NCBI GenBank assembly: GCA_965215195.1
Contig: CBDCDC010000001.1
Location: forward strand, 640,001 to 704,000
Direction of reading: 5' to 3'
From: Candidatus Latescibacterota bacterium
GTDB lineage: Bacteria; Latescibacterota; UBA2968; UBA8231
Length of the DNA: 64,000 nucleotides
Translations under genes and position numbers: made by a program
Part shown: positions 11,932-59,779 of the stretch, one piece after another
Numbering within the stretch: the first letter of the stretch is position 1
Layout of the letters: the number at the start of each line of letters is the position of its first letter
The notes under the pieces: generated by a model
What the model saw: only the letters and a program-made list of their open reading frames with translations
Told to the model about the DNA's origin: nothing
Databases searched by the model: none

Positions 11932-13584
11932 TTAGTAGCGCACAGGCCGGACGATGCGCAACGTCAGATTCCCTTCTTCGACAATGAAATACCGATTGAC
12001 CGGCAGGTCGGTAAAAATTTCGCAGTGCTGGTCGGGCCAGCGCACTTCGAGCGTATCGACCCGCCCGACGCGCCCCAGCCCGAAGTGGAGGCGGCGGTCC
12101 TCGCTGGAGAGGAAACTGCTGCCGCAGATGAGGTCGCGGATCTGCGTCCGCTTGCCAGCGACGAGTCGCGCTCGGGCACCAATGCCATCGCGGTTGCCGC
12201 GCGTACCAACCAAGCGCAGGCCCAGCCAATTCTGCCGGTTGCCTACATCGTTCCGCAACAGGGAGGGCCGATCGTCGAGATTGGCAACAAAAACATCCAA
12301 GTCGCCGTCGTCGTCAAAGTCGAGCACGTTGGCTCCGCGGCTGACGCGGGGCACCTCGGAGCTGAGCGCGATCCGAGTAAACGTTCCGTCGCCAACATTG
12401 GCAAAAAGATGATTGGGCTGGGCATACGCACTGCCGCTGCCGGCGCGGTCGATCTGCGGGTACACGTGGCCGTTGGCCACCAAAAGATCGAGATCGCCAT
12501 CGTTGTCAAAATCGCCGAAACCCGCGCCAAAGCCCACGTGCGCCCACCCGGTGCGTACCAGGGCCGCTTCCGCGCTGACATCCGCAAAAGTGCCGTCACC
12601 CTCGTTGCGATAGAGGGTATTGTACTCGCCTTCAAAATGCGTGGCGAGCAAATCGGGGCGGCCGTCGCGGTCGTAGTCACCCCAAGCCACGCCCATGCTC
12701 GCTTGGATTTGTCCGCTGCGGCCATAGGCCAAGCGGGCCGGGAGGGAGCGGTCGGTAAAGCGGCCGTCGCCGCGATTGCGATAAAAAAAGTTCGGGCTGG
12801 AGTCGTTGGCCACGAATAAGTCGGGCCAGCCATCGGCGTCCGCGTCCGCAAACAGCACGCCCAAGCCGTAGCCTGGGGAGGGGTGGTTGAGGCGCGCCCA
12901 AGCGGTGACGTCGGCAAACTCGTCCCCGTCGTTGCGATAAAACACGTCCGCAGCCCCCAGCAAGCCCCGCGGTCCGACGAAGACCTCCACCCCCTTCCAC
13001 TGCGCCCCCAAGCGCTCGACCGCAGCGGAATCGAATACCGCATAGCTCGCCACATACAGGTCGAGGTCGCCATCGCGGTCGTAGTCGGCCCACGCCGCGC
13101 CCGTGCTCCAACCGGGCGCAGCCACGCCAGCCGCTGCGGCCACATCGACAAAGCGGTCGCCGTCGTTGCGGTAGAGCAAATTCTCCCGCAATTGGGTCGC
13201 GTATAGGTCTTGATCGCCATCGTTGTCAAAGTCCGCGCTGGTTGCACCCATGCCCCAACCGCGGCCCGCGAGCCCGAGCACCTCGCCCACATCGACAAAG
13301 CCGGCCGGGCCATCGTTGCGGTAGAGCGCGTGGCCGCCGCCTTGGCCGTTGACCCAGTACAGGTCTTGGTCGCCGTCGTTATCAAAATCCAGCGCGGCTG
13401 TGCCGCCGCCTTTGGCCTCGGGGATATAGCCCTTTTCCGCGCTGCCGCTCGCGTGGACGCGGGTCAGGCCGAGTTCGGCGGCCACATCGACAAAGGGCGC
13501 AAGCGGCTCGGCTGCGGCCCAGCACGTCCACAGGATGGTCGCGCAGAGGCCGCTGACTATGTTTGGGGGAAACCTAGTACACAC
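11932..13584 (-). CDS. CRTAC1-family protein (FG-GAP repeats + ASPIC/UnbV domain)
   Basis: Many DFDNDGDxDL repeats; NRDGIGAR..SFLSSEDRRLHFGLG..LEVRWP; likely GTG start at 13584 overlapping the upstream stop. Confidence 0.9.
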   Translation of the reverse strand: MCTRFPPNIVSGLCATILWTCWAAAEPLAPFVDVAAELGLTRVHASGSAEKGYIPEAKGGGTAALDFDNDGDQDLYWVNGQGGGHALYRNDGPAGFVDVGEVLGLAGRGWGMGATSADFDNDGDQDLYATQLRENLLYRNDGDRFVDVAAAAGVAAPGWSTGAAWADYDRDGDLDLYVASYAVFDSAAVERLGAQWKGVEVFVGPRGLLGAADVFYRNDGDEFADVTAWARLNHPSPGYGLGVLFADADADGWPDLFVANDSSPNFFYRNRGDGRFTDRSLPARLAYGRSGQIQASMGVAWGDYDRDGRPDLLATHFEGEYNTLYRNEGDGTFADVSAEAALVRTGWAHVGFGAGFGDFDNDGDLDLLVANGHVYPQIDRAGSGSAYAQPNHLFANVGDGTFTRIALSSEVPRVSRGANVLDFDDDGDLDVFVANLDDRPSLLRNDVGNRQNWLGLRLVGTRGNRDGIGARARLVAGKRTQIRDLICGSSFLSSEDRRLHFGLGRVGRVDTLEVRWPDQHCEIFTDLPVNRYFIVEEGNLTLRIVRPVRY

Positions 13585-16051
13585 TGGCGACGAGTTTGGT
13601 GATCGTAGTTTGCTCGCCTTCGGCATCGACTTCCACGCCAACGCGACACAAATACAGACCCGGCGGCAGCAGCCGACCCTGTCGGTCCCGTCCATCCCAA
13701 GTCAGCCGCTGCACCCCGGCGGCGATCGCAGCCGCCCGCTGCACGCGCTGCACACGCTCGCCGTCTAACCCATAGACCTCCAAAATCAACGCCTTGGCAC
13801 CTTGCACTTGGAACACCGGAAAGACCAATTCCACCACGTCGTTGATCCCGTCCCCATTGGGCGTAAACGGATTCGACGACGCGACCACCTCACCCAAAAC
13901 CGCCTTGGTAAAGGGCGTAAACACGGTCAGGCCGCGGCTCGCATCCACCCGCTGCCACACTGGGTCGGCCCCTCGACCGCGCCCAACCTGCACCTCAAAG
14001 GCATTGCTCACCAAGTAGAGCGCACCGGAAAAGCGCAGCAACACGAGGTCCTGTCCCTGCGCGACCGGCGCGGGCAGCCGCACCCACAGGGAATCCGCAC
14101 CGGTCGGCAGCCTCTTTAGCTGATCGCGTCCGTACTGTTCCGCGCCCACGGCCCCGTCGATCAAGTCCATGTGTCCGCCCGGCGGCAGCTCCACCAGCAC
14201 TTGGTCGAACCCGCTGTTGCCGTCTCGGAACGCGGGCCGCAGAAGCAAGGTAAAGGTCTGGGGCTGCCCGCGCCGCGTCCTACCGGGGGTGATCTCGCCG
14301 AGAATTTGGCTGGCGAGGGGCGCGTCTAGCCCGAGGCGCAGGGAGTGCAGCAGCGCGGCCGCGTCTGGATCGTCCGAGCGCAGGGTAGCTTCGATCATCA
14401 CGTAGCGGTGCGGACTCGGCGAGGTGATGGGCGCACCCGGGAGCGAATAAGGCGGACTCCAAGGACTCCAATCCGGGCCGGGGACGATGGTGATGGTCGA
14501 ATCGCCGCGCTGAAAGCTGAGCAGTTTGCGGTACTTGGCCTCGTTCACTTCTTGGCCCGTGTTCGAAAAGTAGCGAATGTTCTGGTCGAGCTGGTTCCCG
14601 CTGCGGGTGCGGATGCGCACTTGGGTGCCGGGCGGCGCGTTGGCCGTCCACTGCATGGCCGACAGAATGCGGGCCGTGCGCCCCAATTCAATCGGCTCAG
14701 ACGCCAGCGATACCTCGGGGAGAAAGCCGCGGCCGTAGAGCTGTATTTCGCGGATGGCCGGGCGGGCCGACCCCTTGATCAAGGTGTAGTCCATCCTGAA
14801 GTAACGCGCCTTGGTCAGCGGAAATACATTGTCCTGAAAGAGAATGCTGCGCTGCGCAGTCCCTTCTCCACCTTCCAAGCCACGCGCCGTCAATGCAACG
14901 TAACTCAAGCTGCCATCTGGTGCGCGGCGGCCATCGGAGAGCCCGATCGCGTAATTGGGGAACGCTTGGCTATACCGATCGCCAAAGACGATGGCAGCGC
15001 GGTTGACCCAATACCAAGTTCCCAAATCAAAATAGATATTGCGATGCGGATCCTGAAATACAACCGCCGGGTCGTTGAGGCTAAAGCCCACTTCCACGCT
15101 CCAAAAGGAGCCCCACTCGCCATCTACAGTTAGCTTTTCCGCGCCCAAGTTGCCGTAGCCGACAATCTCCCCGCCGCGGTCCAGTGCGCCGAGGCTAATG
15201 TTGTCGCCCATGGTCCACACCTCGACTTGGGTCAGCCGCGGCCTTTCCCGGCGGTAGTATTCGACCGGGCCTTGCCATTCCGCCGCAATGGCCTCGTATG
15301 CCGCTTGATCTACCGGCCGCAAAACGCCGGACGACTCGCGGCGAAAGTAGAGCACATCGCCGCGCTCTTCCTCCGGCAGACGGTTCCAGCGCCCGGCACT
15401 GATTTGCTCGGCTTGGCCCAAGTCGCTGGCCGTCCCCACCACTTGGAGGAACTGAACCAGCCGACCGGTGAGCCCGGGATCCACTTTTCGGGTAGGCTGC
15501 AACTCAAACTCATAGACGCGCTGGGATTTGTTTAACCCCTCGCTGTGGCCGGCTGGCAGGTAGTTGAAGGACTCGCTTTGCAGGAAGGCGGGATCGCCGT
15601 TGGCAGTGAGCACCTTGAACTGGAGGAATGGATCGCCTTGGCCTTCAGCCGCGAACTTCACCACCACCTTCTGCGCCCACACCAGCCGGCCCAAGTCGAT
15701 TTCGACCCACCACTTGTCGAGCGCGTCCGCCAAATCCGGTTCCCAGAAGGTATCCTCCCGGCCATCTAGGATGTTTGCGGCTCCTGCTAGGTCGGTTCCG
15801 GCACGGCGGATGCCGCCCTGTACCCCATCCGCATAGGTGAACGCGCTGGCGTCCAAGGCCGCGTTGACTTGATCGCGGACAAATACAGGCCGGACGCCCT
15901 CGGCGCTGAAGTCCAAGCTGCCCGATGGGAAGCGCCACGCCGACCAGTGCTCCGGGGCGACGCTCAACCCATTGTCGTCGAGTTGATACGCTTGGCACCA
16001 CGCTGGGGACGCTATCAGCAGAGCCGCGCCCACAATCGCAACGCTTTTCAC
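13574..16051 (-). CDS. Long-class secreted protein: two discoidin/F5-8-like domains + FlgD-Ig tail
   Basis: GTG start with gagg RBS; signal peptide; LDGREDTFWEP..WWVEIDLGR; RTRSGN; WSPWS; FTPNGDGIND..WDGRD..PPGLYL; ends ASVY. Confidence 0.75.
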   Translation of the reverse strand: MKSVAIVGAALLIASPAWCQAYQLDDNGLSVAPEHWSAWRFPSGSLDFSAEGVRPVFVRDQVNAALDASAFTYADGVQGGIRRAGTDLAGAANILDGREDTFWEPDLADALDKWWVEIDLGRLVWAQKVVVKFAAEGQGDPFLQFKVLTANGDPAFLQSESFNYLPAGHSEGLNKSQRVYEFELQPTRKVDPGLTGRLVQFLQVVGTASDLGQAEQISAGRWNRLPEEERGDVLYFRRESSGVLRPVDQAAYEAIAAEWQGPVEYYRRERPRLTQVEVWTMGDNISLGALDRGGEIVGYGNLGAEKLTVDGEWGSFWSVEVGFSLNDPAVVFQDPHRNIYFDLGTWYWVNRAAIVFGDRYSQAFPNYAIGLSDGRRAPDGSLSYVALTARGLEGGEGTAQRSILFQDNVFPLTKARYFRMDYTLIKGSARPAIREIQLYGRGFLPEVSLASEPIELGRTARILSAMQWTANAPPGTQVRIRTRSGNQLDQNIRYFSNTGQEVNEAKYRKLLSFQRGDSTITIVPGPDWSPWSPPYSLPGAPITSPSPHRYVMIEATLRSDDPDAAALLHSLRLGLDAPLASQILGEITPGRTRRGQPQTFTLLLRPAFRDGNSGFDQVLVELPPGGHMDLIDGAVGAEQYGRDQLKRLPTGADSLWVRLPAPVAQGQDLVLLRFSGALYLVSNAFEVQVGRGRGADPVWQRVDASRGLTVFTPFTKAVLGEVVASSNPFTPNGDGINDVVELVFPVFQVQGAKALILEVYGLDGERVQRVQRAAAIAAGVQRLTWDGRDRQGRLLPPGLYLCRVGVEVDAEGEQTTITKLVASVY

Positions 16052-16058
16052 GGCAGCC

Positions 16059-17180
16059 TCAGTGCGGATCCCCCACTCGCCAGCGGTGCTTTGCCACCCC
16101 ATCCATGTCCAGTTCGATTCCCAAACCCGGCCCTTCCGGCAACACAATGCAACTGCCCTCCACCCGCAGCGGCTCGGCGATAATCTCGTCCCGCCACGCA
16201 ATGCCGGTTACGAACTCCATGGGGGCTACATTCGGTATGGAGGCCATCAAATGTGCGGCCGCTATGATGCCGACCGGGCCTTTGGTGTTGTGCGGCGATA
16301 TGGGGACGTGAAAGGTGTCGGCAATGGCCGCGATTTTGCGCACCTCAGTAATCCCACCGGCGTACATCAGGTCGGGCTGGGCCACGTCGATGCCGTCTAG
16401 GTCCAACAATTGGCGGTAGTGGCTCTTGGTGTTCAGCCGCTCGCTGCCCATGACCGGAATGGCGATTTCCCGCCGCACCTTGGGATAGGCGTACAGATCT
16501 TCCGGCGGCACTGGATCTTCAAACACATACAGGTCGTACGGCTCTATGGCGCGGGCCAAGCGGATGCACTGGGCCACCGTGAAGCGGCCGTGGCAATCGA
16601 TCAACAGCTTGACATCCGGCCCCACCGCTTCCCGCACTGCGGCAAAGTGCGCGGCCGTCTCGGCCGGATGGCCGTCGTCTGCGTACTGACCAAAGCTGTG
16701 CCCACTCCGCGACCGCGCTCCGCCCTTGAGCGCGGTGTACCCCTCTTCCACTTTTTCCTGCGCCATGTTCGCCGAATCCTCGGGCGTGGCCCCGCCAAAG
16801 TGCGTATAGACCTCGACCCGGTCGCGGAACTTGCCGCCCAACAGCTCGACCACCGGCAGGTTCGCCACCTTGCCCTTGATGTCCCACAGGGCTTGGTCAA
16901 TGCCGCTCATGGCGCTCATCCACACCGGACCTGCCATGCGCCAGATGCCGCTCAGGGAGGAGCGCAGATAGAGCTTGTGCCACAAGTACTCAATGCGCGC
17001 CGGGTCTTCGCCGATCAGCTCCTGTTTGAGATGCTCGACCGCGGCAACTACCACCGGCTCTTTGTTGGAATACGTGGCCTCGCCCAAGCCCACTAGCCCT
17101 TCGTCCGTAAAGACCCGCACAATCGTCCATTTGCGGCCCGGCGAGTCGATCAGAATGGTGTCGATATCGCGTATTTTCAT
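16059..17180 (-). CDS. Mandelate racemase/muconate-lactonizing family acid-sugar dehydratase (DgoD-like)
   Basis: GLVGLGEA, SGIDQALWDIKGK, DCHGRF, EDPV, QPDL..GGITE..KIAAIA, P.GPGLGIE. Confidence 0.9.
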   Translation of the reverse strand: MKIRDIDTILIDSPGRKWTIVRVFTDEGLVGLGEATYSNKEPVVVAAVEHLKQELIGEDPARIEYLWHKLYLRSSLSGIWRMAGPVWMSAMSGIDQALWDIKGKVANLPVVELLGGKFRDRVEVYTHFGGATPEDSANMAQEKVEEGYTALKGGARSRSGHSFGQYADDGHPAETAAHFAAVREAVGPDVKLLIDCHGRFTVAQCIRLARAIEPYDLYVFEDPVPPEDLYAYPKVRREIAIPVMGSERLNTKSHYRQLLDLDGIDVAQPDLMYAGGITEVRKIAAIADTFHVPISPHNTKGPVGIIAAAHLMASIPNVAPMEFVTGIAWRDEIIAEPLRVEGSCIVLPEGPGLGIELDMDGVAKHRWRVGDPH

Positions 17181-17374: not shown

Positions 17375-18436
17375 TCAATCAAACAGCGGCGACACTTCTT
17401 GCGCCACAGTGCGAGCTGCTTCTTGGTAAAAATCATCGAGAATGGACTCGTCGTCCGGTATGAAGTCCTCCCTGAAGGTCTTCTGAATGTTGAGTGCCTG
17501 CTCTAGCACCGTTTCGTCCTTGAGTACATCTTTCACTACCAACTGCACTTGGGCGTATAATCCCGCTTGTGGGGCATTAGAGCTATAGAAGCCGACCCTG
17601 TACCAGTTCACAATGTAATCCAAGGTGTAGGGGATGTCTTTGGCCGAGAGATCCATGGTGAAGCGGACGCGGCTGAACCGTTTGAGCTCGTCCAAGAGAG
17701 CCGGTCGAACCGACTCATGCAGTGCAAGGAGCTTTCTCTTAGCCTTCATCTTTTGTCGCGGGAAGATATTAAATATCCTAAAAAAGAGGTCATCATTTGA
17801 AAAGATGTCAGGATTTAGACCTTCGTATGCCTCAACTAGTTGATCAATCTGGTCAGACAAGCCCTCACTGTTGCGCGTCCTCACCAACACCTTAAAGGTT
17901 CCAGTCGGGGCATTTACCACGCCCTCCTCCTCGGACAGCTCTTCCGCCACCGGCAACCCGACGAATGGAACCAGCAGAGCCGCTGTATAATCTAAGGCTT
18001 GGAACTTGAGCAGCTTGCTTTTGCCCGCCGCTTTCGCGATCAGCGGTTCCAGCCCAACGTTCTTTTTTTTCTTTAACAGGTCGCCGGCCATATCGGCTAC
18101 CCGCACCAAGTACGCCTTGGCCTCGCGCTCAGAAAAATGCGCTCCGTGCAGCGCAAAGAGCCGTTCGCCGAGGGCCGTAGATTTCTTACAATGCGTCTTT
18201 AGGTCCCGCAACAATGAGACCAAGGAATCCCGGCTTGCGGCAGCAGACAATCCAGACGCCGCACTGACCTCCGCGACGAACTCGTCCAATGTTCCCTTGT
18301 CGTCCCGCTCCAAGCGGTCGCGCAACTGTTCCAAAGCCACGCGCACAAAATCCGCCTCTTGTGCAGAAGCGGCGACAGCACTCGCCGTCATGCAGAGAAA
18401 GACGCAAGCAGCAATATGACACAACATGTTATTCAT
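17375..18436 (-). CDS. Hypothetical secreted protein (353 aa)
   Basis: Long ORF, signal peptide ending AVAASAQE, ggag RBS, lower GC than flanks. Confidence 0.7.
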   Translation of the reverse strand: MNNMLCHIAACVFLCMTASAVAASAQEADFVRVALEQLRDRLERDDKGTLDEFVAEVSAASGLSAAASRDSLVSLLRDLKTHCKKSTALGERLFALHGAHFSEREAKAYLVRVADMAGDLLKKKKNVGLEPLIAKAAGKSKLLKFQALDYTAALLVPFVGLPVAEELSEEEGVVNAPTGTFKVLVRTRNSEGLSDQIDQLVEAYEGLNPDIFSNDDLFFRIFNIFPRQKMKAKRKLLALHESVRPALLDELKRFSRVRFTMDLSAKDIPYTLDYIVNWYRVGFYSSNAPQAGLYAQVQLVVKDVLKDETVLEQALNIQKTFREDFIPDDESILDDFYQEAARTVAQEVSPLFD

Positions 18437-18591: not shown

Positions 18592-19872
18592 TCAGAAGAC
18601 AGGTTCGGCTGTTGACAATTCCGCGCCATTATACGCCCATTGCAAGTGTATATGGCTGGTCGAGAATCTTTGGCTGGTAGGCCCCCCCAGCATCTCCAGC
18701 GTCCGTTCCCAGCAATGGGGCGTCAACACGCCCTGCACTTCTTGGTAGCTATTGTAAGCCGTGCTCCAAGTCGGCGGCAGAAAGTCGGGATTGGCTTGCC
18801 TGAACCATTGCTCTTCCTTGGGCGTTAGCTTTTCTCTGGTCTTGGCCAAGAGTGCCGTGCCACAGTCAAAGAGCGCCTCGAAATAGTGCCCGAACTTCCG
18901 GTCGTCAACCAGCACGACCTCATAGCAAGTCCCGTCTCTACTACGCTCCTGACCGAGGTAATCCAAGGCCACGCCCTCGCCCATAAAGCGGTCAATGAAA
19001 TGCCAACGCACCGCTTCGCCCCGGTCGCGCAGGGCGGCCAAATCAGGGGGCAGGGCGTCTCTATACCGCCTCCAGCGATCGTTAAACAGATCCTCAAATA
19101 TCCCCCGCTCTCGCCCGGGATTTTTGCTCACATAAGACGGATTGGGGACCGCCGGGTCGAAAGAAACCTCTACCTTGTATCGTTCTTTTTTGGAGACAGC
19201 GCGATCTCCCCATCCCTCGTAGTGCCAAGTCGCCACCGGATACAGATAGGGGGTCACCGGAACCGCCGTTAGGCAAACGCCACCTTGGCAAACGGGCCTT
19301 TCTAACTCTCTTACGGTGGCCTCTATCCACACCATCGCGCTCATTGCTCGTATTGCGAGCAGACGCTTCCTACCGCCCATGGCCTCAATCGCACGCTCTA
19401 TCACCTTTAGGGCTTGATCGCGGTCTGCGCCCATATTGGCTAGGGGAAAGCGCACATAGTCCTCGCGAAAGTTTTCGTCGGCGGCCAGGTGCGCCAAGAG
19501 CAAGGAGTCGATATCTACATCGCCAGACCGCTCTATCCGCAGCCTCTTTTCGAGGTGAGCCATGTCGGCGCGCACCTCGGGCGGTAGCTGCTCCGCAATC
19601 TCGCCAAGACGAGGAGATTCGACCTGTTCCTCTGCAAGCTGCGGTAGCGCAGCCTCGACAACCAAACGCTGCATTTGTCGCTCGCTCAAAGCAGGTCTCG
19701 TGGGATCAAACGCCCGCGTTTCTAGTGCGCGCGGCGGCTGACGAAAAACCACCTCAAAGGCCGATTGGGGATCGGGTGTGGAAGGAGTCAACAAGACCAC
19801 AGCCAAATGCAAGAGGGCCGAAAGGAACAGGCAGACAGCCACTCTCTTGGTTTCGGTCGCAGACCAGTGCAT
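18592..19872 (-). CDS. Membrane-anchored protein: TonB-like SxxxH anchor, linker, LolA/LppX-like C-domain (copy 1)
   Basis: ATG 19872 after aggag; FLSALLHLAVV; VIERAIEAMGG..L..I; DYLGQE; FDCGTALL; YQEVQGVLTPH. Confidence 0.6.
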   Translation of the reverse strand: MHWSATETKRVAVCLFLSALLHLAVVLLTPSTPDPQSAFEVVFRQPPRALETRAFDPTRPALSERQMQRLVVEAALPQLAEEQVESPRLGEIAEQLPPEVRADMAHLEKRLRIERSGDVDIDSLLLAHLAADENFREDYVRFPLANMGADRDQALKVIERAIEAMGGRKRLLAIRAMSAMVWIEATVRELERPVCQGGVCLTAVPVTPYLYPVATWHYEGWGDRAVSKKERYKVEVSFDPAVPNPSYVSKNPGRERGIFEDLFNDRWRRYRDALPPDLAALRDRGEAVRWHFIDRFMGEGVALDYLGQERSRDGTCYEVVLVDDRKFGHYFEALFDCGTALLAKTREKLTPKEEQWFRQANPDFLPPTWSTAYNSYQEVQGVLTPHCWERTLEMLGGPTSQRFSTSHIHLQWAYNGAELSTAEPVF

Positions 19873-20079
19873 GTCAATCTCCTTTCGTACTGTTTTCAAG
19901 CAAACAGCAAGCTAAGTTATGGTACGGCCCTGATTTAGGTTTATTTGTAATTGATCTAACTACAAATCGCATCATGCTTATACATACGCTGCAAAAAACC
20001 CTCACGCAAGGGCCGCGGCAACGTACCCAAACGCGGCGACGACTGCATCAAGGCGGTCAGTTTTGTGAAGGGAGTCTTC

Positions 20080-21333: not shown

Positions 21334-21371
21334 ATCAGTCTTCTTTCGTACTGTTTTCAAGCAAATAGCTA

Positions 21372-31838: not shown

Positions 31839-31851
31839 ACAATACTCCTTT

Positions 31852-43819: not shown

Positions 43820-43965
43820 CTCGTACCGCAATAATATACATCAATGTCCACAATTAGTAGGCATAGTATGCTAAAAATGTGAATTCTCTCCAATCTATAT
43901 CACTACGGACTGATGCGGCCCCGGCTTGGGCCTCCACCCCGTCTGGCGTTTTTATGCCGCGCAAC

Positions 43966-44892: not shown

Positions 44893-44905
44893 GTCGCTAG
44901 CCAGC

Positions 44906-45082
44906 ATATAGGAAGGCCCGTGGATTAGATTGGCCAGCAGTTCCCGGCTGATGGGTGCTTGCCGGATGATCTGCTGCCGCAATGGGTTCGTTTTAAGCAT
45001 TTTGTATCGCAATAATGTACATCAATGTCCACAATTAGTGGGCATAACATGCTAAAAATGTGAGGTTCCGTCCAATCCACAT
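44906..45082 (-). repeat. Duplicated, internally deleted abiEi 5' end and promoter
   Basis: Matches 43587-43647 joined to about 43786-43900. Confidence 0.88.
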
Positions 45083-47777: not shown

Positions 47778-47916
47778 ACGCACGAACTGGGAACGGACAT
47801 GCTGGAGACATTGCGCCAATACATAGCGGCTGGAAGCGTTTCATGGAACGAACGATTGAATGGGAGTGGCGTGGGGATGTGGATTAGGTCCTGCCGAAAA
47901 GAGAGGGCATAAGACG

Positions 47917-52013: not shown

Positions 52014-52027
52014 GGTCTGCTCCTTTT

Positions 52028-53965
52028 TTAGTACGCAACCCCCACCGCACCGAGGCGGGTGAATTGCTCGCGCTCGGCGTCGGCGGTCACTTGGGCGAGG
52101 TAGAGCCCCGCGGGAACCGGGTTGCCGCTGTCGTCGCGCCCGTCCCATTCATAGGCAAAAGAGCCGCTGCCGCGCGCACCGGCAAACAAGGTGCGCACCC
52201 GCTGGCCTCCAAGCGAGAAAATCCGCACGGCCAACTGGACGGGCTGCTGGAGCTGGACCAAGGTACAGGAAATGCGCACGCGATCGTTGACCCCGTCGCC
52301 ATTGGGCGTCATCACGGCTGGCTGCACTGCAAAGAGCGGGAGCAGGTTGCGCGCCGAAGCGGCCGTGGTCAGTACGCGCAAGTCATTGGTCAGGACCGTG
52401 GGGTTGGCGTCGCCGGGCAGGACCTGCTGCGGGGCCTCGTCGCTTTGGGTGTCAAAGACGCGGGCGCGAAAGAACGTGGATTGGACAAAAACTTCGGCGT
52501 CGAACACGACGCGCAGCGCACCCGGCGATTGGTGCGTCAGCCTTTGGCTGGGGAAGAATAGCGTCAGGCTTTCTTCGCCCGCGACGACGCTGTCGGGCGC
52601 GGTGGCGACGGGCGGATCGCCCGCGAACATCTCCCTGAACTGCGGCCTAGCGGGCGTGAAAATCTCCAGAGCGTCAAAGCCCACGTCCGTCTCGCGGATG
52701 TCGGCGCGGATGTCGTACGCAAAGGTCGAGAGCGCGCCGGCCGGCACTCGGGGCTTGTTGCCCAAGGGGCGGGGGGTTTCCAGCGCGGAGATTTCCCCTA
52801 TGAGCTGCTGGGCCAACGGCGGGATGGAGTGCTCAACCACCAGCGAGTTGACCCGGATGCCGTCGAGGATGGAGTGGCTTTCGAGGGCGATTTCGAGCTG
52901 GAAGAAACGACGCGGGCTAGGCAGCTCAATTTGCTGGCCGGACTCGGCAAAGGGCGGCGACCACTCGCTCCAGTTGACTTGATCGTCTTCGACCGGGCCG
53001 CGCACGTTCAGGCCCAGCCGGCCGTAGTCGCCCTCCGACACTTCCTGCACGTCGCCAGTGAAAACATTGACGATTTCGTAGAACACTTGCGGGGTATCGT
53101 CGCGGCCCGTGCGCATGCGAATGGAGACGCGCGCATCGGCCGTTGGCTCGACGTCGATGCGGCCCTCTTGCTGGCGCAAGGTCTCGGCCGTCCACAGCAG
53201 GCGGCTGAAGTTGGCCACTTCGCCCAAGTCGATGATCTTGGAGCGATAGCGCCCTCCCGGGGGAAAACCCGCCCCGTACACCTCGAACTCGGCTATCTCA
53301 AAGGGGTTGGTCGAGGTCACGTTGAGCTGGATGTAGCGGACGAATTGCAGGGGGAAGGGAATTTGCGCCACGCTTTCCGCGGTAAAATCCACCTGGGTCA
53401 GCAGGTTGTACACCGGCAGATTTTCCGGCGTGAAGCTAACGCCATCGCTGACCTGAATTTTATAGCCGCGGATGAAGTCGTCGGCAAAGGGCCGCCCGCG
53501 GCTGTCGGCCCCTTGCGGGCGCGGGAAAAACGAGATGCGATTGACGGGGAGGCGCGTACCCAAGTCAAAGAAAAAGGCCCGGCCCGCTTGCAGCACCCCA
53601 AATTCCTTGAAGCGGTTTTCGCTGGAGGTCTGCACGTCGCCATCGACGAGCGGGGCATTCGTCTGCTTGAAGGGCACGTTGTCCCACACCCGCGCCGCAG
53701 CCACCTCAGTGACGAAATCCAAGGGGAAGCCCTCGGTCCACTTTAGCTGCCGGACGATGTTGTCGTTGGGATTAAAACCCACCAATTGAATGGCCCCGGC
53801 GGCATCGAAGCTGATGGCCGTGGAATTTAGCTCGTCGTCTTTCCAAGAGCGGCCCGCACCGCCCAATTCCCACTGCCGCACCTCGCCGCCGGCCGCGGTG
53901 GCCATGACCAGCACCATAGAAGCACAAACTAGCGATCTGAACGCGCACAAAAGCAATTCCCTCAC
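52028..53965 (-). CDS. Short-class discoidin-like/FlgD secreted protein (module B)
   Basis: FDLGTRLPVNRISFFPR; MRTG; WSEWSPP; MTPNGDGVND; ends GVAY. Confidence 0.75.
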   Translation of the reverse strand: MRELLLCAFRSLVCASMVLVMATAAGGEVRQWELGGAGRSWKDDELNSTAISFDAAGAIQLVGFNPNDNIVRQLKWTEGFPLDFVTEVAAARVWDNVPFKQTNAPLVDGDVQTSSENRFKEFGVLQAGRAFFFDLGTRLPVNRISFFPRPQGADSRGRPFADDFIRGYKIQVSDGVSFTPENLPVYNLLTQVDFTAESVAQIPFPLQFVRYIQLNVTSTNPFEIAEFEVYGAGFPPGGRYRSKIIDLGEVANFSRLLWTAETLRQQEGRIDVEPTADARVSIRMRTGRDDTPQVFYEIVNVFTGDVQEVSEGDYGRLGLNVRGPVEDDQVNWSEWSPPFAESGQQIELPSPRRFFQLEIALESHSILDGIRVNSLVVEHSIPPLAQQLIGEISALETPRPLGNKPRVPAGALSTFAYDIRADIRETDVGFDALEIFTPARPQFREMFAGDPPVATAPDSVVAGEESLTLFFPSQRLTHQSPGALRVVFDAEVFVQSTFFRARVFDTQSDEAPQQVLPGDANPTVLTNDLRVLTTAASARNLLPLFAVQPAVMTPNGDGVNDRVRISCTLVQLQQPVQLAVRIFSLGGQRVRTLFAGARGSGSFAYEWDGRDDSGNPVPAGLYLAQVTADAEREQFTRLGAVGVAY

Positions 53966-54002
53966 TTTATTGGCGAAATATAGCCCGTTCTCACCCAGAA
54001 CC

Positions 54003-55943
54003 TCAACCCCAGAAAATCACATTGCCGACCATGCCGGTACAGTGATCGACGAACAGAAAAAGCCCCCCTGGCACGATGTGCCCGGCGATCATGCCCATGA
54101 AAAAGGGGCGCGTCTTGCGGTAGAGCGCCACGCCGCCGTAGCGCAGCACCGACACCTTAATCAGCCACGCCAAAAACATGTCGAACCAGAGGTGATCCAT
54201 GATCCCGGTCGGGCCGATGGGGTAGCCGAGGGGATGCAGGGGCCACCAGACATAGTACCAGCGCGCCAGCATCAACAGCAGCATTGCGCCCGCCCCAATC
54301 CCGGTGTTGATCCAACCCCACAGATGCGGCTCGCTCGGCGTGCGAATCAAGCCGGCCGCGTAGTCGTAAAACCCGTGCTTGCCCCCGGGAATTTTTAGGT
54401 TGAGCGCCCCGTACGAATAGCCCAGCTCCACGACCACCCACATTGACGAGACCAGCCCAACGGCCATGGCCAAGAGCATCGTCCAGAACAGCGGCCGTTT
54501 GGACCCGCCGAAGCCCTCGCCCAATTTGAGGCTGTTGGCGGCCGAAGTCATGGCGAAGCTGCGCCCGTTCGTCCAGAAATAGGTCGTCGCCAGCACCACC
54601 AAGCCCTCGACCCCGATGGCCGACGAGCCGACGGCTGAGACCACGATGGCGGCCGGGCCGACCGGGACCGAACCATCCGAAAGCCCTCCTTCGGCGATTA
54701 GGCGAGTAAATCCGACAAAGAGCGCGAAAGCAGTGAAGAGAAAGGCCAAGGTGACCCAGACGGGCAGGCCGGCCAGCGCCAGCCACGCAACCAGCACCGC
54801 GCTGCTGCCCAGCAGGACCAGCACGGCCGTCCGGTAGGAGAGGATTTCGCCGGAGTCATCTACGGTCGGGTCGCCCCACAGGGCCTTGCGCAAGACCGCC
54901 CGCAGGTGCTTGCGGGCCGCGAACAGGCCAAAAAGAAAAAGGACCAGCATCCCGCCCATGGACTGGTGGACGAGGATCGGGTCGATGATCGAGTGCCCGC
55001 CCCCCAGCATCTCCGAACTGGTGACGCCCAGTACGGCGAAGGTGGTGCGCAGGGCATTGGCGAAGAGGTTAAAAAACCACAGGCTGAAGGCGATTTCAGT
55101 CTTGAGAAAGTAGAAAAAGCCCAAGATGTTGAAGCGGAATTTGAATTGCAGTTCGGACAGGTTGTCGAAGATGGGCAGGATGAAGTGGATGGGATCTACA
55201 TTGGTGGCAATGGGCACGGTCTCCGGGAAGTAGTTGTGCAGCCCGTGCAGGGTGCCCCAGATGGCCGGCACGGCAAAGCCGCTCCACATCACCGGGTTTT
55301 TGAAAAACGGGGCCATGCGTTCCCCCCCAGCGTCCTGCTCGGCGAGGGCCATGGGCACCTGGACCAGCGGATAGGTCAGCCGCTCGTGGTCGTTCCACTG
55401 CTTGCGCAGAATGGCCATCGCGGCAATCATCGCCAAGAACAGGGCCCACACAAAAGGGGCCCAGCGCAAGAAAATCGGCAGCCAGTCAAGCCAGGGGATG
55501 GAGCGGCCCTGTTCCAAGCCCTCGTAAAAAGGCCCCATGATCCCTAGATCGCGTGGCTGCAACCAGTCCGCTAGGTGGGGTTGGACGAGCGTGTGCCAGT
55601 CGTTTTCCGGCGTGGCAAAGTAAAAGGGGGTGAGGATCGTGCCGATGAAGCGGCCGGCAAAAAACACCGGCAGGGGCGAGGCCATGACCATCATTATATA
55701 GATGAGCAGGAGCTCGCCGCGGTTTAGCCCGGCTCGCGGATGGACCAGCTTGAGCAGCGGGTTGACCAAGCCGGCGAGGAAGAAGAGCAAGAACAGGGCG
55801 CCGACCGTGCTGGTCCCGAGCGTCATGTACGAGCCGCGCAAATAGAAGACTCCATAGGAGTCGCCCGCAGCCACGAAAAACGTAAACAGGCAACCGAGAA
55901 TCAGGGCCTTGGGCGTGAAGGCACCGGCCGCTGGGGGGCGCAA
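54003..55943 (-). CDS. DUF6785/DUF6784-like polytopic membrane protein (copy B)
   Basis: YFATPENDW, LRKQWNDHERLTYPLVQVP, TRLIAEGG, WWPLHPLGY, LRYGG..LY...RPFF. Confidence 0.8.
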   Translation of the reverse strand: MRPPAAGAFTPKALILGCLFTFFVAAGDSYGVFYLRGSYMTLGTSTVGALFLLFFLAGLVNPLLKLVHPRAGLNRGELLLIYIMMVMASPLPVFFAGRFIGTILTPFYFATPENDWHTLVQPHLADWLQPRDLGIMGPFYEGLEQGRSIPWLDWLPIFLRWAPFVWALFLAMIAAMAILRKQWNDHERLTYPLVQVPMALAEQDAGGERMAPFFKNPVMWSGFAVPAIWGTLHGLHNYFPETVPIATNVDPIHFILPIFDNLSELQFKFRFNILGFFYFLKTEIAFSLWFFNLFANALRTTFAVLGVTSSEMLGGGHSIIDPILVHQSMGGMLVLFLFGLFAARKHLRAVLRKALWGDPTVDDSGEILSYRTAVLVLLGSSAVLVAWLALAGLPVWVTLAFLFTAFALFVGFTRLIAEGGLSDGSVPVGPAAIVVSAVGSSAIGVEGLVVLATTYFWTNGRSFAMTSAANSLKLGEGFGGSKRPLFWTMLLAMAVGLVSSMWVVVELGYSYGALNLKIPGGKHGFYDYAAGLIRTPSEPHLWGWINTGIGAGAMLLLMLARWYYVWWPLHPLGYPIGPTGIMDHLWFDMFLAWLIKVSVLRYGGVALYRKTRPFFMGMIAGHIVPGGLFLFVDHCTGMVGNVIFWG

Positions 55944-55946
55944 GGA

Positions 55947-58586
55947 CTACACCCCGCCGGTGGCAGCGAAGATGCGGACGAAGACGACCGATTGCTTCTG
56001 GGTCTGCTCGGCGAAGAACTGGCGCTCTAGGAGGAAGCCGGCGTTCATGGTCAGCTCGTACCCTTGATAGGACGACACATTGGTCAGCAGGGCCGAAAAG
56101 ACGAGGCTGCGGAAGTCCTCGACATAGCTCGGCGAGGCCTCGGCCGGGCGCTCGGCGAGGTTCTCGAAGAGGCTGAATTCAACGCCGAAGTCCAAGAGCG
56201 TCTTAGGCAGGAGCGCGTACTGGCCGATAAAGAAAAAGCTCTCGGTCAGTTCGTTGGCCTCCAAACCGGCCAGCGCAGTGGGCGTTTCTCGCTGGTACAT
56301 GCTCTTCCACTTGGGATAGAGGGCGAGCCGGTCGCTGGGGCGGATGGCGTAATCGGCCTTGTTGATCAGGCCCAAAAACGAGCGGTCGCGCTTTAGGCTG
56401 GCCTGCGCGCCGAGCTGGTTGAAGTGCTCGTACTTCAGCTTGCCCTCGACGTTGAGGTTGCGGATGCGAAAGTAGCGAGCCTGCAAGTACAGGGCGTTGA
56501 CAAAGGTATCTTGGTTGTCGAGCGGATCCGCAAAATCCGTCAGGCCGATGGGATCGCGCCAGACGACGCGGTCTTCGGGCAAGGTGTCGGCCACTAGTTT
56601 GGCGTGTTCAAACAGGGCGATGTCCAGCCCGGGATAGGATTTTTCCAAGGTCAGCAGCCCGTAAAACGAGCGGCTCTCGCGGTCGCTGCTCAATTGGTGC
56701 TCGGCGAGCCGGCCGACGGTTAGCCGGGTGCTCTCGGTGATTTTTAATCCCCCGTATGCGTTGTAGCCGCGGTGGTCGCGCTCGTAGGGATAGTCGGGCA
56801 AGCGGTCGTCCTCAAAGCGGTCGATGATCGTATTGTTGTTCATGTCCATGCCAAAGAGAAACTCCGGCGGATCGACCTGATAGCGGAGAAAAGGCTCGAC
56901 GTAATCCGGGCGGCTGTTCTGGTTTTGGTTGAAGTCCGAGATAAAATCGTTGTTCTCGTCTAGCCCGGGGAAAATTTCGGTGTCGCGGCCCAGCGAGCCG
57001 CCCGTGCCGCCAAACCCTTGGCTCTGGCGATAGCGCTGCCAGTCGGTGAAGCGATCTTGGTCGTCGTTGTCATCGACGAATTCAAAGAGGTTTTGCGTCT
57101 CGCTGGCGTAGTCGATGACCCCGCCCGGGTCGGCGATAAAGGCCGTGGTGCTGTAATCGGGGTCTATGGTGAACACCTCGCCGTACGCAAAGAAGGGGTA
57201 GCGCTGGTACGAGGCCGTGACGTAGCCGGCTTCGGCCGTTTCCTCGTGAGCGGGCAGCTTGCGGAAGTTTTGGTTGGGGAAGCGGCGGAAGCGGCGGTTG
57301 ACGGCCCATTCGGCCCGCAGGTCGAAGTGGGCGAGGTTAATAAGCTCCAAGTCCATGCCGATCACCTCGTGCCCGGTCGGCAGGCCGTAGGCAAAGCGCA
57401 CAAAGGTCTGGTTGGACCCATCGGTGATCTCGTCGCGGGCCTCGGCCACTGGCAAGAAGACCTGCTCGCCCCGGGCATTGGTCTGGAGATTGGAGGCGAT
57501 TTCTATGCGGTAGTCGTTGGACACCACCAGCTCGAATTCGAGCTTTTTGGCCTCGCGGAAGGTGCCCACTTTTTCGGTTGGGCTAAAATCGTTGCGAATG
57601 TCGTAGATAAGCTCAATTACGTCCGAGCCGCTCACTTCCAAAATGCCCTCGCGTCGCACGCCGCCGCGCACCAAGGGCGCGATTTCCGGGTGCAGCTCTC
57701 CGTCGATGATCACCTGATCGACGAAAAACGAGGCCCCGGTTTGCTCGGATTCGGGCGAGTCGTCCGCGATGCGGATGATGACCCGCTCGACATTGCCCGT
57801 ATTTTGGGGGCCGGTCAGCAGGCCCTTGAGCGAGTTGTCGCCGAGGCTCAGTTCGCTGCTGGTATTGGACACATTGACCCACGTCAGGCCCAGCTTGGCG
57901 AAGTCGCCCACTTGGGCCACGCCGCGCGCCCCGAGGAGGCGGGTCGTGTTTTCGAGCGTCGAAGACCCGGCCGCCTCGTTGAGCGCGGTAAACCCCGGCG
58001 CGTTGAGCCGCGAGCCGAGGAGGGTCAGCGCGTACTTGTCGGCGAGAAAATCCCACTGCAACCCGTTGAACGTGGGCTTGGAAAAGGTCAGGGGGGTGAG
58101 GGTCGTGCGGATGGCGTCGCCCACCGTCAGGGAGGTGTGGAACTGGCCGTGGCTGGCCGACGAGATGACGAGGCTGTCGAACCAGCGGCCAAAGCGGGTT
58201 CCCTTCAACAGGGCACTGCCCTGGCGCAGGGGGCTGGTTTCGGTCCAGTCGTAGATGACCCAGCCGCGGTTGATGTACTGGCCGAAGAGGTTGTAGTTGC
58301 GGGTGCCTTCGAGCAGGATGTTGACGTAGCGCTCGTAGTTGTCGCGGGCGTAGTTGCTGTATTCCCAGCCGCGCCACTGGTACTCGTAGTACAGATTCTG
58401 CGGCAAGTACCACTTGCGCCGGTTGGGCGCCAAGGCCCCGGGATGGATGCGCACCCCGCGAATCCCCGGTTGCTCAACCGGCCGAAAGCCGGTAGATAGC
58501 TGGGCAAAAGCCTTGGACTCCGAGAGTGCAAACGCGCACCACAACAGCAAGATCGGCCCTCTGCGGCAAAGGGTTGTCAGCCTCAT
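55947..58586 (-). CDS. Large secreted Asp-repeat / putative beta-barrel protein (copy B)
   Basis: Shares WY.PQ.LY, WEY.NYARD.Y.RYV, IRTTLTP.TFSKP.F.G, FVDDNDDQDR and FLFGMDMNNN with 29142-31838. Confidence 0.68.
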   Translation of the reverse strand: MRLTTLCRRGPILLLWCAFALSESKAFAQLSTGFRPVEQPGIRGVRIHPGALAPNRRKWYLPQNLYYEYQWRGWEYSNYARDNYERYVNILLEGTRNYNLFGQYINRGWVIYDWTETSPLRQGSALLKGTRFGRWFDSLVISSASHGQFHTSLTVGDAIRTTLTPLTFSKPTFNGLQWDFLADKYALTLLGSRLNAPGFTALNEAAGSSTLENTTRLLGARGVAQVGDFAKLGLTWVNVSNTSSELSLGDNSLKGLLTGPQNTGNVERVIIRIADDSPESEQTGASFFVDQVIIDGELHPEIAPLVRGGVRREGILEVSGSDVIELIYDIRNDFSPTEKVGTFREAKKLEFELVVSNDYRIEIASNLQTNARGEQVFLPVAEARDEITDGSNQTFVRFAYGLPTGHEVIGMDLELINLAHFDLRAEWAVNRRFRRFPNQNFRKLPAHEETAEAGYVTASYQRYPFFAYGEVFTIDPDYSTTAFIADPGGVIDYASETQNLFEFVDDNDDQDRFTDWQRYRQSQGFGGTGGSLGRDTEIFPGLDENNDFISDFNQNQNSRPDYVEPFLRYQVDPPEFLFGMDMNNNTIIDRFEDDRLPDYPYERDHRGYNAYGGLKITESTRLTVGRLAEHQLSSDRESRSFYGLLTLEKSYPGLDIALFEHAKLVADTLPEDRVVWRDPIGLTDFADPLDNQDTFVNALYLQARYFRIRNLNVEGKLKYEHFNQLGAQASLKRDRSFLGLINKADYAIRPSDRLALYPKWKSMYQRETPTALAGLEANELTESFFFIGQYALLPKTLLDFGVEFSLFENLAERPAEASPSYVEDFRSLVFSALLTNVSSYQGYELTMNAGFLLERQFFAEQTQKQSVVFVRIFAATGGV

Positions 58587-58867
58587 GATCCATCTCCTAA
58601 TGAGGGGGAAGCCCGCCTAGGCAGCGAGCGCTATCGGTTGACAATATACGCCCCGTTCCCACTGCCTACCAAGTCAGCAGCGCGCTGTCGCCTCCGCCAA
58701 AAACGGCATTCCCTTGCCGCAAATTTGTATCGCCTTTGTTTATTAGTTAATAATTAAAACCACTTCAGCAGCATCGTTTATCCGAAAGGAGGTTGCACAG
58801 CGTGCTGAACGACAGTTTCCACATTCCTTTTTCTTACTTCATCTCTTTCAATCAAGGAGCGTAGCAA

Positions 58868-59779
58868 ATGAGAAAGTTCGGCTTTTTCGCCTCGTCTTTT
58901 GGGCTGGCGTGCCTGCTGAGCACGGCCGCTTTTGCCCACGTAGGCGTTACTGTGTTCTACCCGCAGGTGCCCGATCCGGCGGCCATCACCATCGACGGCA
59001 ACGACGACGATTGGGGTTGGTACGACCCGGCCCTCGCCCTCAATCAGCCCGATTTCTTCGACCGGGCCAGCGATTTCGTCGAGTTGTCGGACTACGATTT
59101 CACCATCCTCAACGGCTGGTCGGCACCGCCGGACAACAAGTGGTACGGCTTTGCGCGTTTTGTCGACGACACCCTCAAGTACGATTCGCCCGTCAAGGAG
59201 TGGTGGAAGGACGACTGCTTGCAGATAACCGTTGATGCCGATCACCTCGGCGGGAATATCCTCGGTTCCGACCTCGAGCAGATCGCCAATGGCCAGCGCT
59301 GGCACGTGCGCATTTTCCCGCCGGCCGGCGAGTCCCTGTTGCCCAATCAGACCTGCTTCTTCTACAGCCAGCTAGAGTTCATCGACTCCCAAGAGTTGCT
59401 GTGGGGCGTGGAGCCGGAGTTTTTCGAGGCCGCGTGGACCGTCCTGCCAGCGGGTGCCGAGAACCTGACGGTTGGGCCGGTAACGTACACCTATGAGTGG
59501 CGGGGTGCCCTGTGGGACATCTGGGGCCTGAGCGAGGCCGAGAGCGTGCGGCACGTGTTTGCCGAGGACGACGTGATTCACCTCGGCTATCGCCCGCTCG
59601 ACGCCGACCGCCCCGGCGGTGGACGCAAACACTCCATGTACATCAACGACGGCAGCCAGTCGCAGGACGTCGACGCTTCGCAGATGCCCGACTTCTGGGC
59701 GCTGGCGGCGCCCGAGACCAGCGTGGAAAACGACACTTGGGGCCACATCAAAAACAGCATGTCCCAACGCCTCAAGTAG
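58868..59779 (+). CDS. Secreted CBM9-like protein with 'TSVE..TWG.IK' tail, divergent from module B
   Basis: Signal peptide AFA|H; ITIDGNDDDW; DADHLGG; ends TSVENDTWGHIKNSMSQRLK. Confidence 0.72.
   Translation: MRKFGFFASSFGLACLLSTAAFAHVGVTVFYPQVPDPAAITIDGNDDDWGWYDPALALNQPDFFDRASDFVELSDYDFTILNGWSAPPDNKWYGFARFVDDTLKYDSPVKEWWKDDCLQITVDADHLGGNILGSDLEQIANGQRWHVRIFPPAGESLLPNQTCFFYSQLEFIDSQELLWGVEPEFFEAAWTVLPAGAENLTVGPVTYTYEWRGALWDIWGLSEAESVRHVFAEDDVIHLGYRPLDADRPGGGRKHSMYINDGSQSQDVDASQMPDFWALAAPETSVENDTWGHIKNSMSQRLK

Follow-up and report, generated by a model that had tools for sequence, protein, structure and literature searches.

The SusC/SusD utilisomes of Bacteroidota, encoded in polysaccharide utilisation loci (PULs), set an outer-membrane barrel of ~900-1000 aa beside surface glycan-binding proteins and occur as dozens of paralogous loci with importers and catabolic genes. 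Type B cargo of the type IX secretion system (T9SS) is reportedly anchored by small PorP/SprF-like barrels, and chaperone-usher pili and the SprA translocon with its bound isomerase offer a comparison for secretion. Latescibacterota are widespread in sediments, soils and sponges and are assumed to be polymer degraders; to our knowledge, the phylum has no cultured representative. Here, we describe an envelope gene cassette centred on a predicted outer-membrane beta-barrel, present twice in 64,000 nucleotides of a Candidatus Latescibacterota bacterium (GCA_965215195.1, contig CBDCDC010000001.1, positions 640,001 to 704,000; hereafter, the window) and many times over in its genome. Excerpts of one Latescibacteria genome paper assume that substrates enter via non-specific porins (PMC4454575), and neither these nor excerpts of a second such paper (PMC12993501) mention the cassette.

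The cassette comprises a CBM9-like protein, in many cases a lipoprotein, two short proteins and one long protein with an FlgD-like C-terminal tail (hereafter, tailed proteins) and the barrel, with a SurA-like isomerase, a TPR protein and an FG-GAP/ASPIC protein usually alongside. It replaces the four-component unit of an earlier reading of the window (hereafter, the original prediction). Tentatively, and at something short of an even chance, we take it for a SusCD-like capture-and-uptake complex made from non-homologous parts, without a recognisable plug or TonB-dependent domain. As far as our searches show, the barrel family, the lipoprotein, a C-terminal tag and the whole cassette are undescribed, with parts of known fold classes. 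The genome is a two-contig assembly (C1 and C2) of 6.13 Mb, 95.2% complete with 8.5% contamination, in which the window is C1:640001-704000.

The predicted barrel and its surface partners

The window was checked by open reading frame (ORF) listing, Pfam, NCBIfam and all-against-all BLAST, with a domain scan of 32 frames from 11932 to 64000. All genes named in the original prediction are open frames, and the families do recur in its two modules, A and B, as paralogs that are 41% (large protein, over 852 aa), 39% (permease candidate, over 646 aa), 30-61% (long tailed) and 29-32% (short tailed) identical. Module A reads, 5' to 3' on the minus strand, CBM9-like protein (34275-35159), short tailed protein (31852-33576), large protein (29142-31838), short tailed protein (27228-29129), isochorismatase-family hydrolase (26501-27214), long tailed protein (24000-26534), DUF6785/DUF6784 membrane protein (21616-23604), three genes without a family, an enolase-superfamily enzyme (16059-17180), long tailed protein (13574-16201) and FG-GAP + UnbV_ASPIC protein (11932-13695). 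Module B, also on the minus strand, holds the large protein (55947-58586), the permease candidate (54003-55943), a short (52028-53965) and a long (49635-52148) tailed protein, and the CBM9-like gene (58868-59779, plus strand) diverges from it. In the 32 frames scanned, no TonB_dep_Rec, Plug, SusD or ABC ATPase domain turned up, in line with what the original prediction said of SusC/D, TonB-dependent receptors and ABC ATPases in the modules.

The large gene of module A, first delimited as 29142-32057, most likely starts at GTG 31838, directly ahead of a signal peptide that follows residue 74 in the long ORF; this start removes the overlap with 31852-33576. The proposal of an outer-membrane platform held up for this family in that an AlphaFold2 (AF2) model of the module B copy (pLDDT 80.5, pTM 0.78, alignment of 55 sequences), Foldseek and VIA-align all indicate a barrel; the fold of the module A copy is taken from its paralog. 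As modelled, the large protein would be a beta-barrel of roughly 22-26 long strands, ~880 aa with its signal peptide, made mainly of 10-17-residue strands and ending in a barrel strand. A beta-rich insertion (~244-393) follows roughly the sixth long strand, and residues ~481-604 are mostly irregular. An invariant acidic segment (~506-607, Asp/Asn-rich) accounts for ~20 of the family's 35 invariant columns, and the C-terminal motif ..F.T[VI][FY]AGL is conserved.

Among the matches listed by Foldseek there were only outer-membrane barrels (MtrB, SlpA, FimD, LptD, TonB-dependent receptors and porins), with low TM-scores (0.13-0.38). VIA-align listed 50 rows, each an outer-membrane or organelle barrel (50/50, Z 10.1-14.1), with BtuB (Z 13.2) and SusC BT1762 (Z 11.5) among generic barrel matches. 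The barrel fold class is clear from the model, and no family can be named: neither large protein matched an NCBIfam family, Pfam at E ≤10 gave nothing for the module B copy and a chance-level Arylsulfotran_N match (E 0.19) for the module A copy, and a sequence search of the barrel profile against solved structures returned nothing significant. The profile recovered 1185 clusters at 50% identity (1.84 billion representatives), the best 150 of which were listed as relatives; 2 of 17 distant family members had sub-threshold SlpA_C matches.

A divergent branch of the barrel family has HMM (hidden Markov model) scores of 183-326, against at least 770 in the main group, and forms doublets and triplets adjoining a ~1080-aa TPR protein at C1:164604-182111 (locus L046), C2:1886094-1901638, C2:2510362-2529020 and C2:3755677-3776704. 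Two of the four ExbB/ExbD sets of the genome lie 3-8 kb from divergent groups, and ExbB/ExbD possibly provide energy coupling for this branch.

The tailed proteins had been proposed as surface binding proteins, and the predicted structures agree with that: they look secreted and non-catalytic, with CBM32-like, Ig-like and type IX C-terminal domains. Homology between long and short forms covers the C-terminal ~500 aa, and the long form repeats the N-terminal discoidin-like part (two HMM stretches). An FlgD_ig/CHU_C C-terminal domain is present in 6/6 window copies, with CHU_C, a type B family, at E 1e-5 to 2e-6 and TIGR04131 weakly; F5_F8_type_C exceeds the Pfam cut-off (28.2) in 2/6 (31.1 and 28.9 bits). 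The long protein at 13574-16201 (FlgD_ig, CHU_C, F5_F8_type_C_2), 61% identical to that at 24000-26534 (F5_F8_type_C 31.1 bits, FlgD_ig, CHU_C), extends the short-form body and its T9SS-type C-terminal domain by a further discoidin-like segment at the N-terminus, and the long protein of module B matches F5_F8_type_C_2 (32.5 bits), CHU_C and FlgD_ig. Among the short proteins, that at 27228-29129 (FlgD_ig 35.9 bits, CHU_C) has a signal peptide without a lipobox, that at 31852-33576 matches FlgD_ig (28.7 bits), CHU_C and weakly F5_F8_type_C, and that at 52028-53965 (FlgD_ig 47.2 bits) was modelled.

In its AF2 model (pLDDT 87.7), residues 65-237 match the CBM32 modules 2v72, 7blg and 4a42 (Z 12.8, root-mean-square deviation 2.6-2.9, 123-131 residues aligned), residues ~240-380 form a second sandwich and ~385-535 an Ig-like domain, and residues 538-645 match the C-terminal domains of PorU (Z 12.3) and PorZ (Z 10.1). 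There was no catalytic domain among its structure matches, and one long tailed protein, searched by sequence against solved structures, had no significant match. Both PorU and PorZ reportedly keep their C-terminal domains uncleaved. PorU (628.6 bits, cut-off 420) and SprA (499.4 bits, cut-off 200) are present in the genome, and since the tailed proteins carry a type IX C-terminal domain in these models, the single T9SS would be expected to export them and leave them attached at the cell surface. We found no paper linking Latescibacteria, or FlgD Ig-like domains, with type IX secretion.

In a tree of 129 tailed proteins, 47 formed a long clade (support 1.0), 29 a short-alpha clade (1.0) and 43 a short-beta clade (0.89). 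Module A combines two long and two beta proteins; module B has one long and one alpha protein. The three clades therefore show that duplication took in the whole cassette, its three old and differentiated lines of binding proteins included.

The CBM9-like protein of module B is 52% identical to a third window copy (43966-45012, minus strand; family HMM 278.2 bits), which links weakly (E 2e-5) to the module A copy. CBM9_1 (PF06452) matched at E ≤0.01 in 12 of 25 family members (best 3.3e-6); the third copy reached 17.9 bits (E 0.0031), below the cut-off of 23.4, and Pfam gave no CBM9_1 match for the module copies at 34275 (HMM 299.9 bits) and 58868 (288.3 bits). The family profile matches the CBM9 of xylanase 10A (1i82, E 0.0011). 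These matches tie the family weakly to CBM9, and NCBIfam has no family for it.

Both module copies, predicted to be secreted, end in a tag of the form ~[GAP]TAVE-xxx-[ST]WG-x-[ILV]K-xxF, which closes ~10 residues before the stop: TAVE..GWGRLK in module A (tag site 35131-35159, minus strand) and SVE..TWGHIK in module B (59738-59779, plus strand); the third copy lacks it. WG.[ILVM]K occurs 64 times in the gene set, 55 times within the last 30 residues, and the 55 tagged proteins are 32 of the 37 CBM9-like proteins and 23 others of 147-504 aa. The tag matches no NCBIfam model and looks like a sorting or docking signal.

The permease candidates are clear members of DUF6785 (PF20581; 419.7 bits in module A and 397.8 in module B, cut-off 25) and DUF6784 (PF20580; 108.3 and 96.3 bits, also above cut-off), a family without an assigned function. 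They are polytopic, with 14 hydrophobic segments in a crude scan of 21616-23604. PF20581 occurs in 47 places in the genome, 44 of them nearly full length. An OPT-like fold, raised in the original prediction, found no backing: the OPT model PF03169 had two genome matches at E ≤1, neither at a DUF6785 gene, and Pfam at a relaxed threshold likewise gave no OPT match. Its relatives in the Atlas are mostly in Armatimonadota and Bathyarchaeota clusters, and OPT is carried by only 11% of one Atlas cluster. The permease matched no NCBIfam family and, by sequence search, nothing significant among solved structures; we found no paper naming DUF6785 or DUF6784.

Four further families (F1-F4) emerged when 575 other genes within 10 genes of 50 large genes were clustered, and two of them have members in the window beyond the genes listed earlier. 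F1 is a SurA-like peptidyl-prolyl isomerase of the PPIC type with 29 copies near barrel genes; the window copy (35790-37655, plus strand, divergent from module A; F1 HMM 586.5 bits) matches Rotamase_2 (E 7.3e-17), Rotamase and Rotamase_3, and a paralog in locus L043 also matches SurA_N_3 and SurA_N_2. F2 is a TPR protein of ~400-500 aa (28 copies near barrels). F3 joins FG-GAP and UnbV_ASPIC (28 copies); its member on the minus strand at the end of module A has FG-GAP_3 at E 3.8e-47, UnbV_ASPIC at E 9.7e-19 and an F3 HMM score of 656.5 bits. F4, with 16 copies near barrels, is a protein of ~250 aa without a family and, because of an invariant lipobox cysteine and an NPYTFGDW motif, is read from its sequence as a lipoprotein. 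By HMM it has no member in the window, and alone or as a profile it matched nothing significant among solved structures. A co-fold prediction of barrel residues 93-879 with residues 38-250 of the lipoprotein of locus L047 scored 0.00 (mark 0.32) and counts neither way.

Linkage, expansion and spread

A search of 22,851 six-frame ORFs (minimum 80 aa) with HMMs built from the window paralogs gave, after coverage filters, 52 large proteins, 129 tailed proteins, 44 permeases and 37 CBM9-like proteins. Together, eight families cover 718,593/6,134,125 bases, or 11.7% of the genome. Of the 52 large genes, 49 have a tailed-protein gene no more than 5 kb away (median gap 49.5 bp). Each family was also placed at random 1000 times and its distance to large genes compared: 87/129 tailed-protein genes lie within 5 kb of a large gene (random mean 12.9, maximum 24), 28/37 CBM9-like genes within 10 kb (5.7, 13) and 29/44 permease genes within 20 kb (11.6, 23), and permease genes within 5 kb (7/44) are not above chance (4.4, 13). 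The repetition of the set is far beyond chance. Because tailed proteins are enriched within 5 kb and the permease only at 20 kb, the barrel and tailed proteins are the operon-level core and the permease is a locus-level companion.

Joining family members at gaps of ≤12 kb gave 64 clusters, 35 of them with a large gene and 17 with permease genes only. Expansion into paralogous loci, as inferred earlier, is thus seen in 52 large proteins and 35 barrel-containing loci. Of these loci, 15 hold all four families of the original prediction, 9 lack the permease, 5 lack the CBM9-like protein, 5 have tailed proteins only and 1 has no tailed protein. The permease had been counted as a fixed member and cannot be kept as one: it is found in 21/35 barrel loci here and in 22/48 full-flank loci of other genomes.

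Flanking genes were scanned for enzymes in the window and in two sets (55 genes in 20 loci; 38 genes in 6 loci). Importers beside cassettes belong to DUF6785, SBP_bac_1, SBP_bac_5, BPD_transp_1 and MFS, and enzymes to MR_MLE, DHDPS, GFO_IDH_MocA, Amidohydro_2, PhyH, GMC, Rieske and FGE-sulfatase-like families; in the larger set, 25/55 genes have no family at E 1e-5. The genome also carries ~35 sulfatase genes (37 PF00884 matches, some split), a few of which adjoin cassettes or lone permeases (e.g., C1:195949 and C1:1137261), and FGE-sulfatase-like genes lie inside two cassette loci.

A pattern scan of other genomes (one per species) returned at least 635 stretches with relatives, of which the best 80 were used. 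By record title, these are 61 Latescibacter*, 16 Gemmatimonad* and one each of Handelsmanbacteria, Thermoplasmata (a 3-kb contig) and "uncultured bacterium." Because one Gemmatimonad*-titled barrel is 96% identical to the window's barrel, the label probably reflects an older classification. Co-localisation, as expected from the window, extends to other Latescibacterota: among the 48 loci with full 10-kb flanks, many of them orthologous copies in close relatives and so not independent, tailed proteins accompany the barrel in 47, the CBM9-like protein in 43, F4 in 43, F2 in 41, F1 in 39, F3 in 28 and the permease in 22. Most often, the genes run c-4-s-s-S-B followed by 1/2/3 (c, CBM9-like; 4, F4; s, short; S, long; B, barrel; 1/2/3, F1-F3).

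Orthologs of module B (96% identical; loci L047, L048 and L102) read 2<3<1<4<s<c< B>P>s>S>c>. Beyond the CBM9-like gene, these three loci continue with short tailed, lipoprotein, SurA-like, FG-GAP/ASPIC and TPR genes. That stretch is absent from 59780-62691 of the window, which has MoxR (60801-61790) and DUF58 (61792-62691) genes instead; the comparison points to local rearrangement or loss beyond module B.

In an even sample of 151 Latescibacterota genomes, our own included (G000), the barrel occurs in 96 and DUF6785 in 137, and both occur in 64/64 genomes of our own family (f1). Three families of the phylum carry an expanded DUF6785/DUF6784 set, with ~20-90 first-look candidates in each genome.

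Contigs 90-95% alike over nearly all of module B were found in 4/4 RNA libraries from three studies, and one of 3737 nt spans 50361-54112, covering both tailed genes and running into the permease gene. These contigs come from relatives only, and neither uncovered parts nor depth differences were used as evidence, contig depth being a poor measure of expression. Over the CBM9-like gene (58626-59600), mean word depth was 146-206, against ~5-15 for other genes, in 4/4 runs, some 10-20 times that of the contigs over barrel, permease and tailed genes; with depth so poor a measure, it is only a lead that the CBM9-like protein, if this depth is real, is by far the most expressed part.

Other genes of the window

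Several window genes lie among or around the cassette genes. The isochorismatase-family hydrolase interleaved in module A (26501-27214, minus strand; Pfam E 8.9e-14) belongs to a family that recurs beside another cassette (L045), and the enolase-superfamily (mandelate racemase/muconate lactonising) enzyme at 16059-17180 (minus strand; MR_MLE_C E 2.3e-64, MR_MLE_N E 8.6e-21) is an accessory catabolic gene. The three family-less genes between that enzyme and the permease, all on the minus strand (17375-18436, 18592-19899 and 20080-21360), have no Pfam or NCBIfam family and, by HMM, no further copy in the genome. The first encodes a 353-aa protein (one genome-wide HMM match) and the other two form a tandem pair, 81% identical by BLAST (two matches).

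Downstream of the F1 gene, 37568-41444 (plus strand) encodes two ABC permeases (BPD_transp_1), a solute-binding protein (SBP_bac_1) and a HAD hydrolase. Between the modules, next to the third CBM9-like gene, an AbiEii toxin (E 5e-36) is paired with an AbiEi-like antitoxin (42277-43831, minus strand). At 8859-10673 (minus strand), 45564-47777 and 47860-49242 (both plus strand) are two paralogous FG-GAP proteins with T9SS tails, one of which matches the type A model TIGR04183 (E 4.9e-8), and a DUF4159 protein adjoining one of the two; BLAST detects 17 DUF4159 copies across the genome, and two of these adjoin divergent barrel groups. Upstream, at 3-2317 (plus strand), 4065-4559 and 4944-8688 (both minus strand), are polysaccharide export/chain-length genes (EpsE-like, Wzz/Wzc-like), a SocA-like antitoxin and a three-subunit molybdoenzyme of the xanthine-dehydrogenase family.

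Function and comparison with known systems

We favour nutrient acquisition because of the many paralogs, the enzyme-free, lectin-like surface proteins, the large barrel, and the importers and catabolic enzymes at the level of the locus. In the mechanism we propose, tailed proteins of the long, short-alpha and short-beta lines, exported by the T9SS, and the CBM9-like protein would bind a substrate, probably glycan-bearing, at the cell surface and pass it on to the barrel, through which it would cross the outer membrane. An importer of the locus in the inner membrane, often DUF6785/DUF6784 and otherwise ABC or MFS, would then take it up, and each paralogous cassette may serve a different substrate. 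The complex itself, its location, its transport activity and its energy source are as conditional as its substrates; they would build on the families, folds, linkage, expansion and spread observed here.

Several observations weigh against an uptake complex of this kind. Plug (PF07715) has 21 matches in the genome and TonB_dep_Rec (PF00593) 16, none on any of the 52 large genes, and Plug is missing from the window copies even at E ≤10; SusD_RagB (PF07980) has one match (C2:2053347), outside every cassette. The flanking genes scanned in this genome matched no glycoside hydrolase or polysaccharide lyase family, the usual hallmark behind the term "PUL-analogous" of the original prediction. CBM32-like folds also occur in adhesins, and a SurA-like isomerase and a TPR protein for each cassette fit assembly or secretion at least as well as uptake. 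As evidence of expression, the RNA contigs over module B are a hint, RNA libraries being able to carry DNA. Permease and barrel are, moreover, separable across the phylum: DUF6785 occurs without the barrel in families f2 (30/30 genomes against 0/30), f3 (18/18 against 0/18) and f4 (2/2 against 0/2), and the barrel without DUF6785 in family f10 (13/13 against 0/13).

In the complete, barrel-free f2 genome G039, which has DUF6785 in 54 places, six 20-kb stretches (L127-L132) were read. Permeases adjoin SusC-type receptors (CarboxypepD_reg + Plug) in two of the six, and DUF4962 with heparinase II/III-like, alginate-lyase or RGL11-like genes in three. The same stretches also contain small OMP_b-brl and PorV-like proteins, and unannotated proteins of 786-796 aa after the receptors. 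Because SusC-type receptors and lyase-like genes adjoin it in G039, the permease belongs to glycan loci, and the barrel cassette stands in the position that an outer-membrane receptor has in them, which favours the capture-and-uptake reading. Our own genome has 52 barrels, compared with 21 proteins bearing Plug and a single SusD-like match, and this counts for the same reading.

Surface display or adhesion, with the barrel merely anchoring three lectin-like proteins and the paralogs forming varied adhesins for host, particle or prey, is an unlikely explanation that nonetheless deserves weight. It would suit tails that match the type B family CHU_C, weakly TIGR04131, and the C-terminal domains of PorU and PorZ, and it would suit tailed proteins without a catalytic domain among their structure matches and scanned flanks without glycoside hydrolase or polysaccharide lyase families. 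In its favour, too, sponge metagenome DNA runs hold part of the window (share 0.24) and a sponge RNA library holds relatives. Locus-level importers and catabolic enzymes would, however, be unexpected for adhesins, and a barrel of ~880 aa is far larger than an anchor needs. FlgD_ig-type tails, with 200 first-look candidates in the genome, also far outnumber the barrels, so the tail is a general export signal and not a barrel-specific tether.

We think it improbable that the cassette is a secretion or assembly machine, in which the barrel would be an usher- or translocon-like exporter served by a SurA-like chaperone and a TPR docking factor. The operon logic of several paralogous subunits with one barrel is that of such machines, 29 SurA-like and 28 TPR genes lie beside barrels, and a protein of ~880 aa with a beta-rich insertion resembles an usher with its plug. 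Foldseek does list the ushers FimD and PapC (E 1.7e-6 to 1e-4), and VIA-align gives PapC Z 10.9 and SprA Z 10.3 (399 residues aligned). The usher TM-scores are only 0.18-0.21 (FimD 0.18-0.20), however, and MtrB, SlpA, LptD and TonB-dependent receptors score alike; the window's large proteins have no Usher or SprA family match (Pfam E ≤10), and the SprA model TIGR04189 matches one other locus only (C1:253047-258179). The barrel model has no C-terminal periplasmic domains, and the presumed cargo already bears T9SS tails in a genome with PorU and SprA.

An obligate four-part machine, in which barrel, short and long tailed proteins and DUF6785 permease form one trans-envelope uptake system, is most improbable and largely refuted because of the phyletic separation of permease and barrel: both window modules and 15/35 barrel loci do hold all four, and permeases are enriched within 20 kb of barrels (29/44 against a mean of 11.6), but 17 clusters have only permeases, no enrichment is seen within 5 kb (7/44 against 4.4), and other cassettes pair with ABC or MFS importers.

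A bolder form of the capture-and-uptake reading is possible in our view, though doubtful in its full extent. The cassette would be the Latescibacterota counterpart of SusCD: an import machine around a new barrel family without plug or TonB-dependent domain, with three T9SS-anchored CBM32 lectins and a CBM9-like protein bearing a sorting tag (TAVE..SWGxIK) not noticed before, in ~50 substrate-specific versions with interchangeable importers, among them DUF6785/DUF6784 as a new class of (oligo)saccharide permease. The cassette must be central to Latescibacterota life, taking up 11.7% of this genome with its partners and occurring in 96/151 sampled genomes. If it is a true uptake machine, the capture-and-import logic of Bacteroidota was invented a second time, independently, with type IX secretion in place of lipoprotein export and no recognisable TonB coupling. 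Testable roles would follow for three sets of genes: the barrel family (1185 clusters), the DUF6785/DUF6784 family and the C-terminal tag (55 proteins).

Set beside known systems, the barrel finds its best fold match in MtrB of MtrCAB (6r2q_B, E 3.9e-9; VIA-align Z 12.1, 389 residues aligned), with Deinococcus SlpA (E 6e-8 to 3e-7) and LptD of LptDE (~2e-5) after it. TM-scores to these proteins are 0.15-0.34, no sequence family is shared with them, and the cassettes lack cytochromes, lipopolysaccharide-transport genes and SLH domains. Chaperone-usher systems (FimD/PapC) are alike in barrel length, in an early beta-rich insertion, in a periplasmic chaperone gene alongside and in having several paralogous subunits that are secreted, one of them bearing a further lectin-like domain. 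They differ in that no Usher or PapD families were found, the cassette chaperone is of SurA type, and the subunits are 600-900-aa multidomain T9SS cargo rather than pilins.

With T9SS type B cargo and PorP/SprF, the cassette shares CHU_C/TIGR04131-like cargo encoded beside a barrel gene, in a genome with PorU and SprA. Its barrel is ~2.5x larger without sequence relation, each barrel has three cargo paralogs, and CBM9-like, lipoprotein, SurA-like and TPR partners are added. The cassette differs from SusC/SusD in lacking Plug, TonB_dep_Rec and SusD among its genes and glycoside hydrolases or polysaccharide lyases in its scanned flanks, and in binding proteins that are T9SS cargo of three fixed paralog lines, not lipoproteins. 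It resembles SusC/SusD in its large barrel beside surface binding proteins, in its many paralogous loci and in its importers and catabolic genes, and the DUF6785 permease of its loci adjoins SusC-type receptors in the sister family f2.

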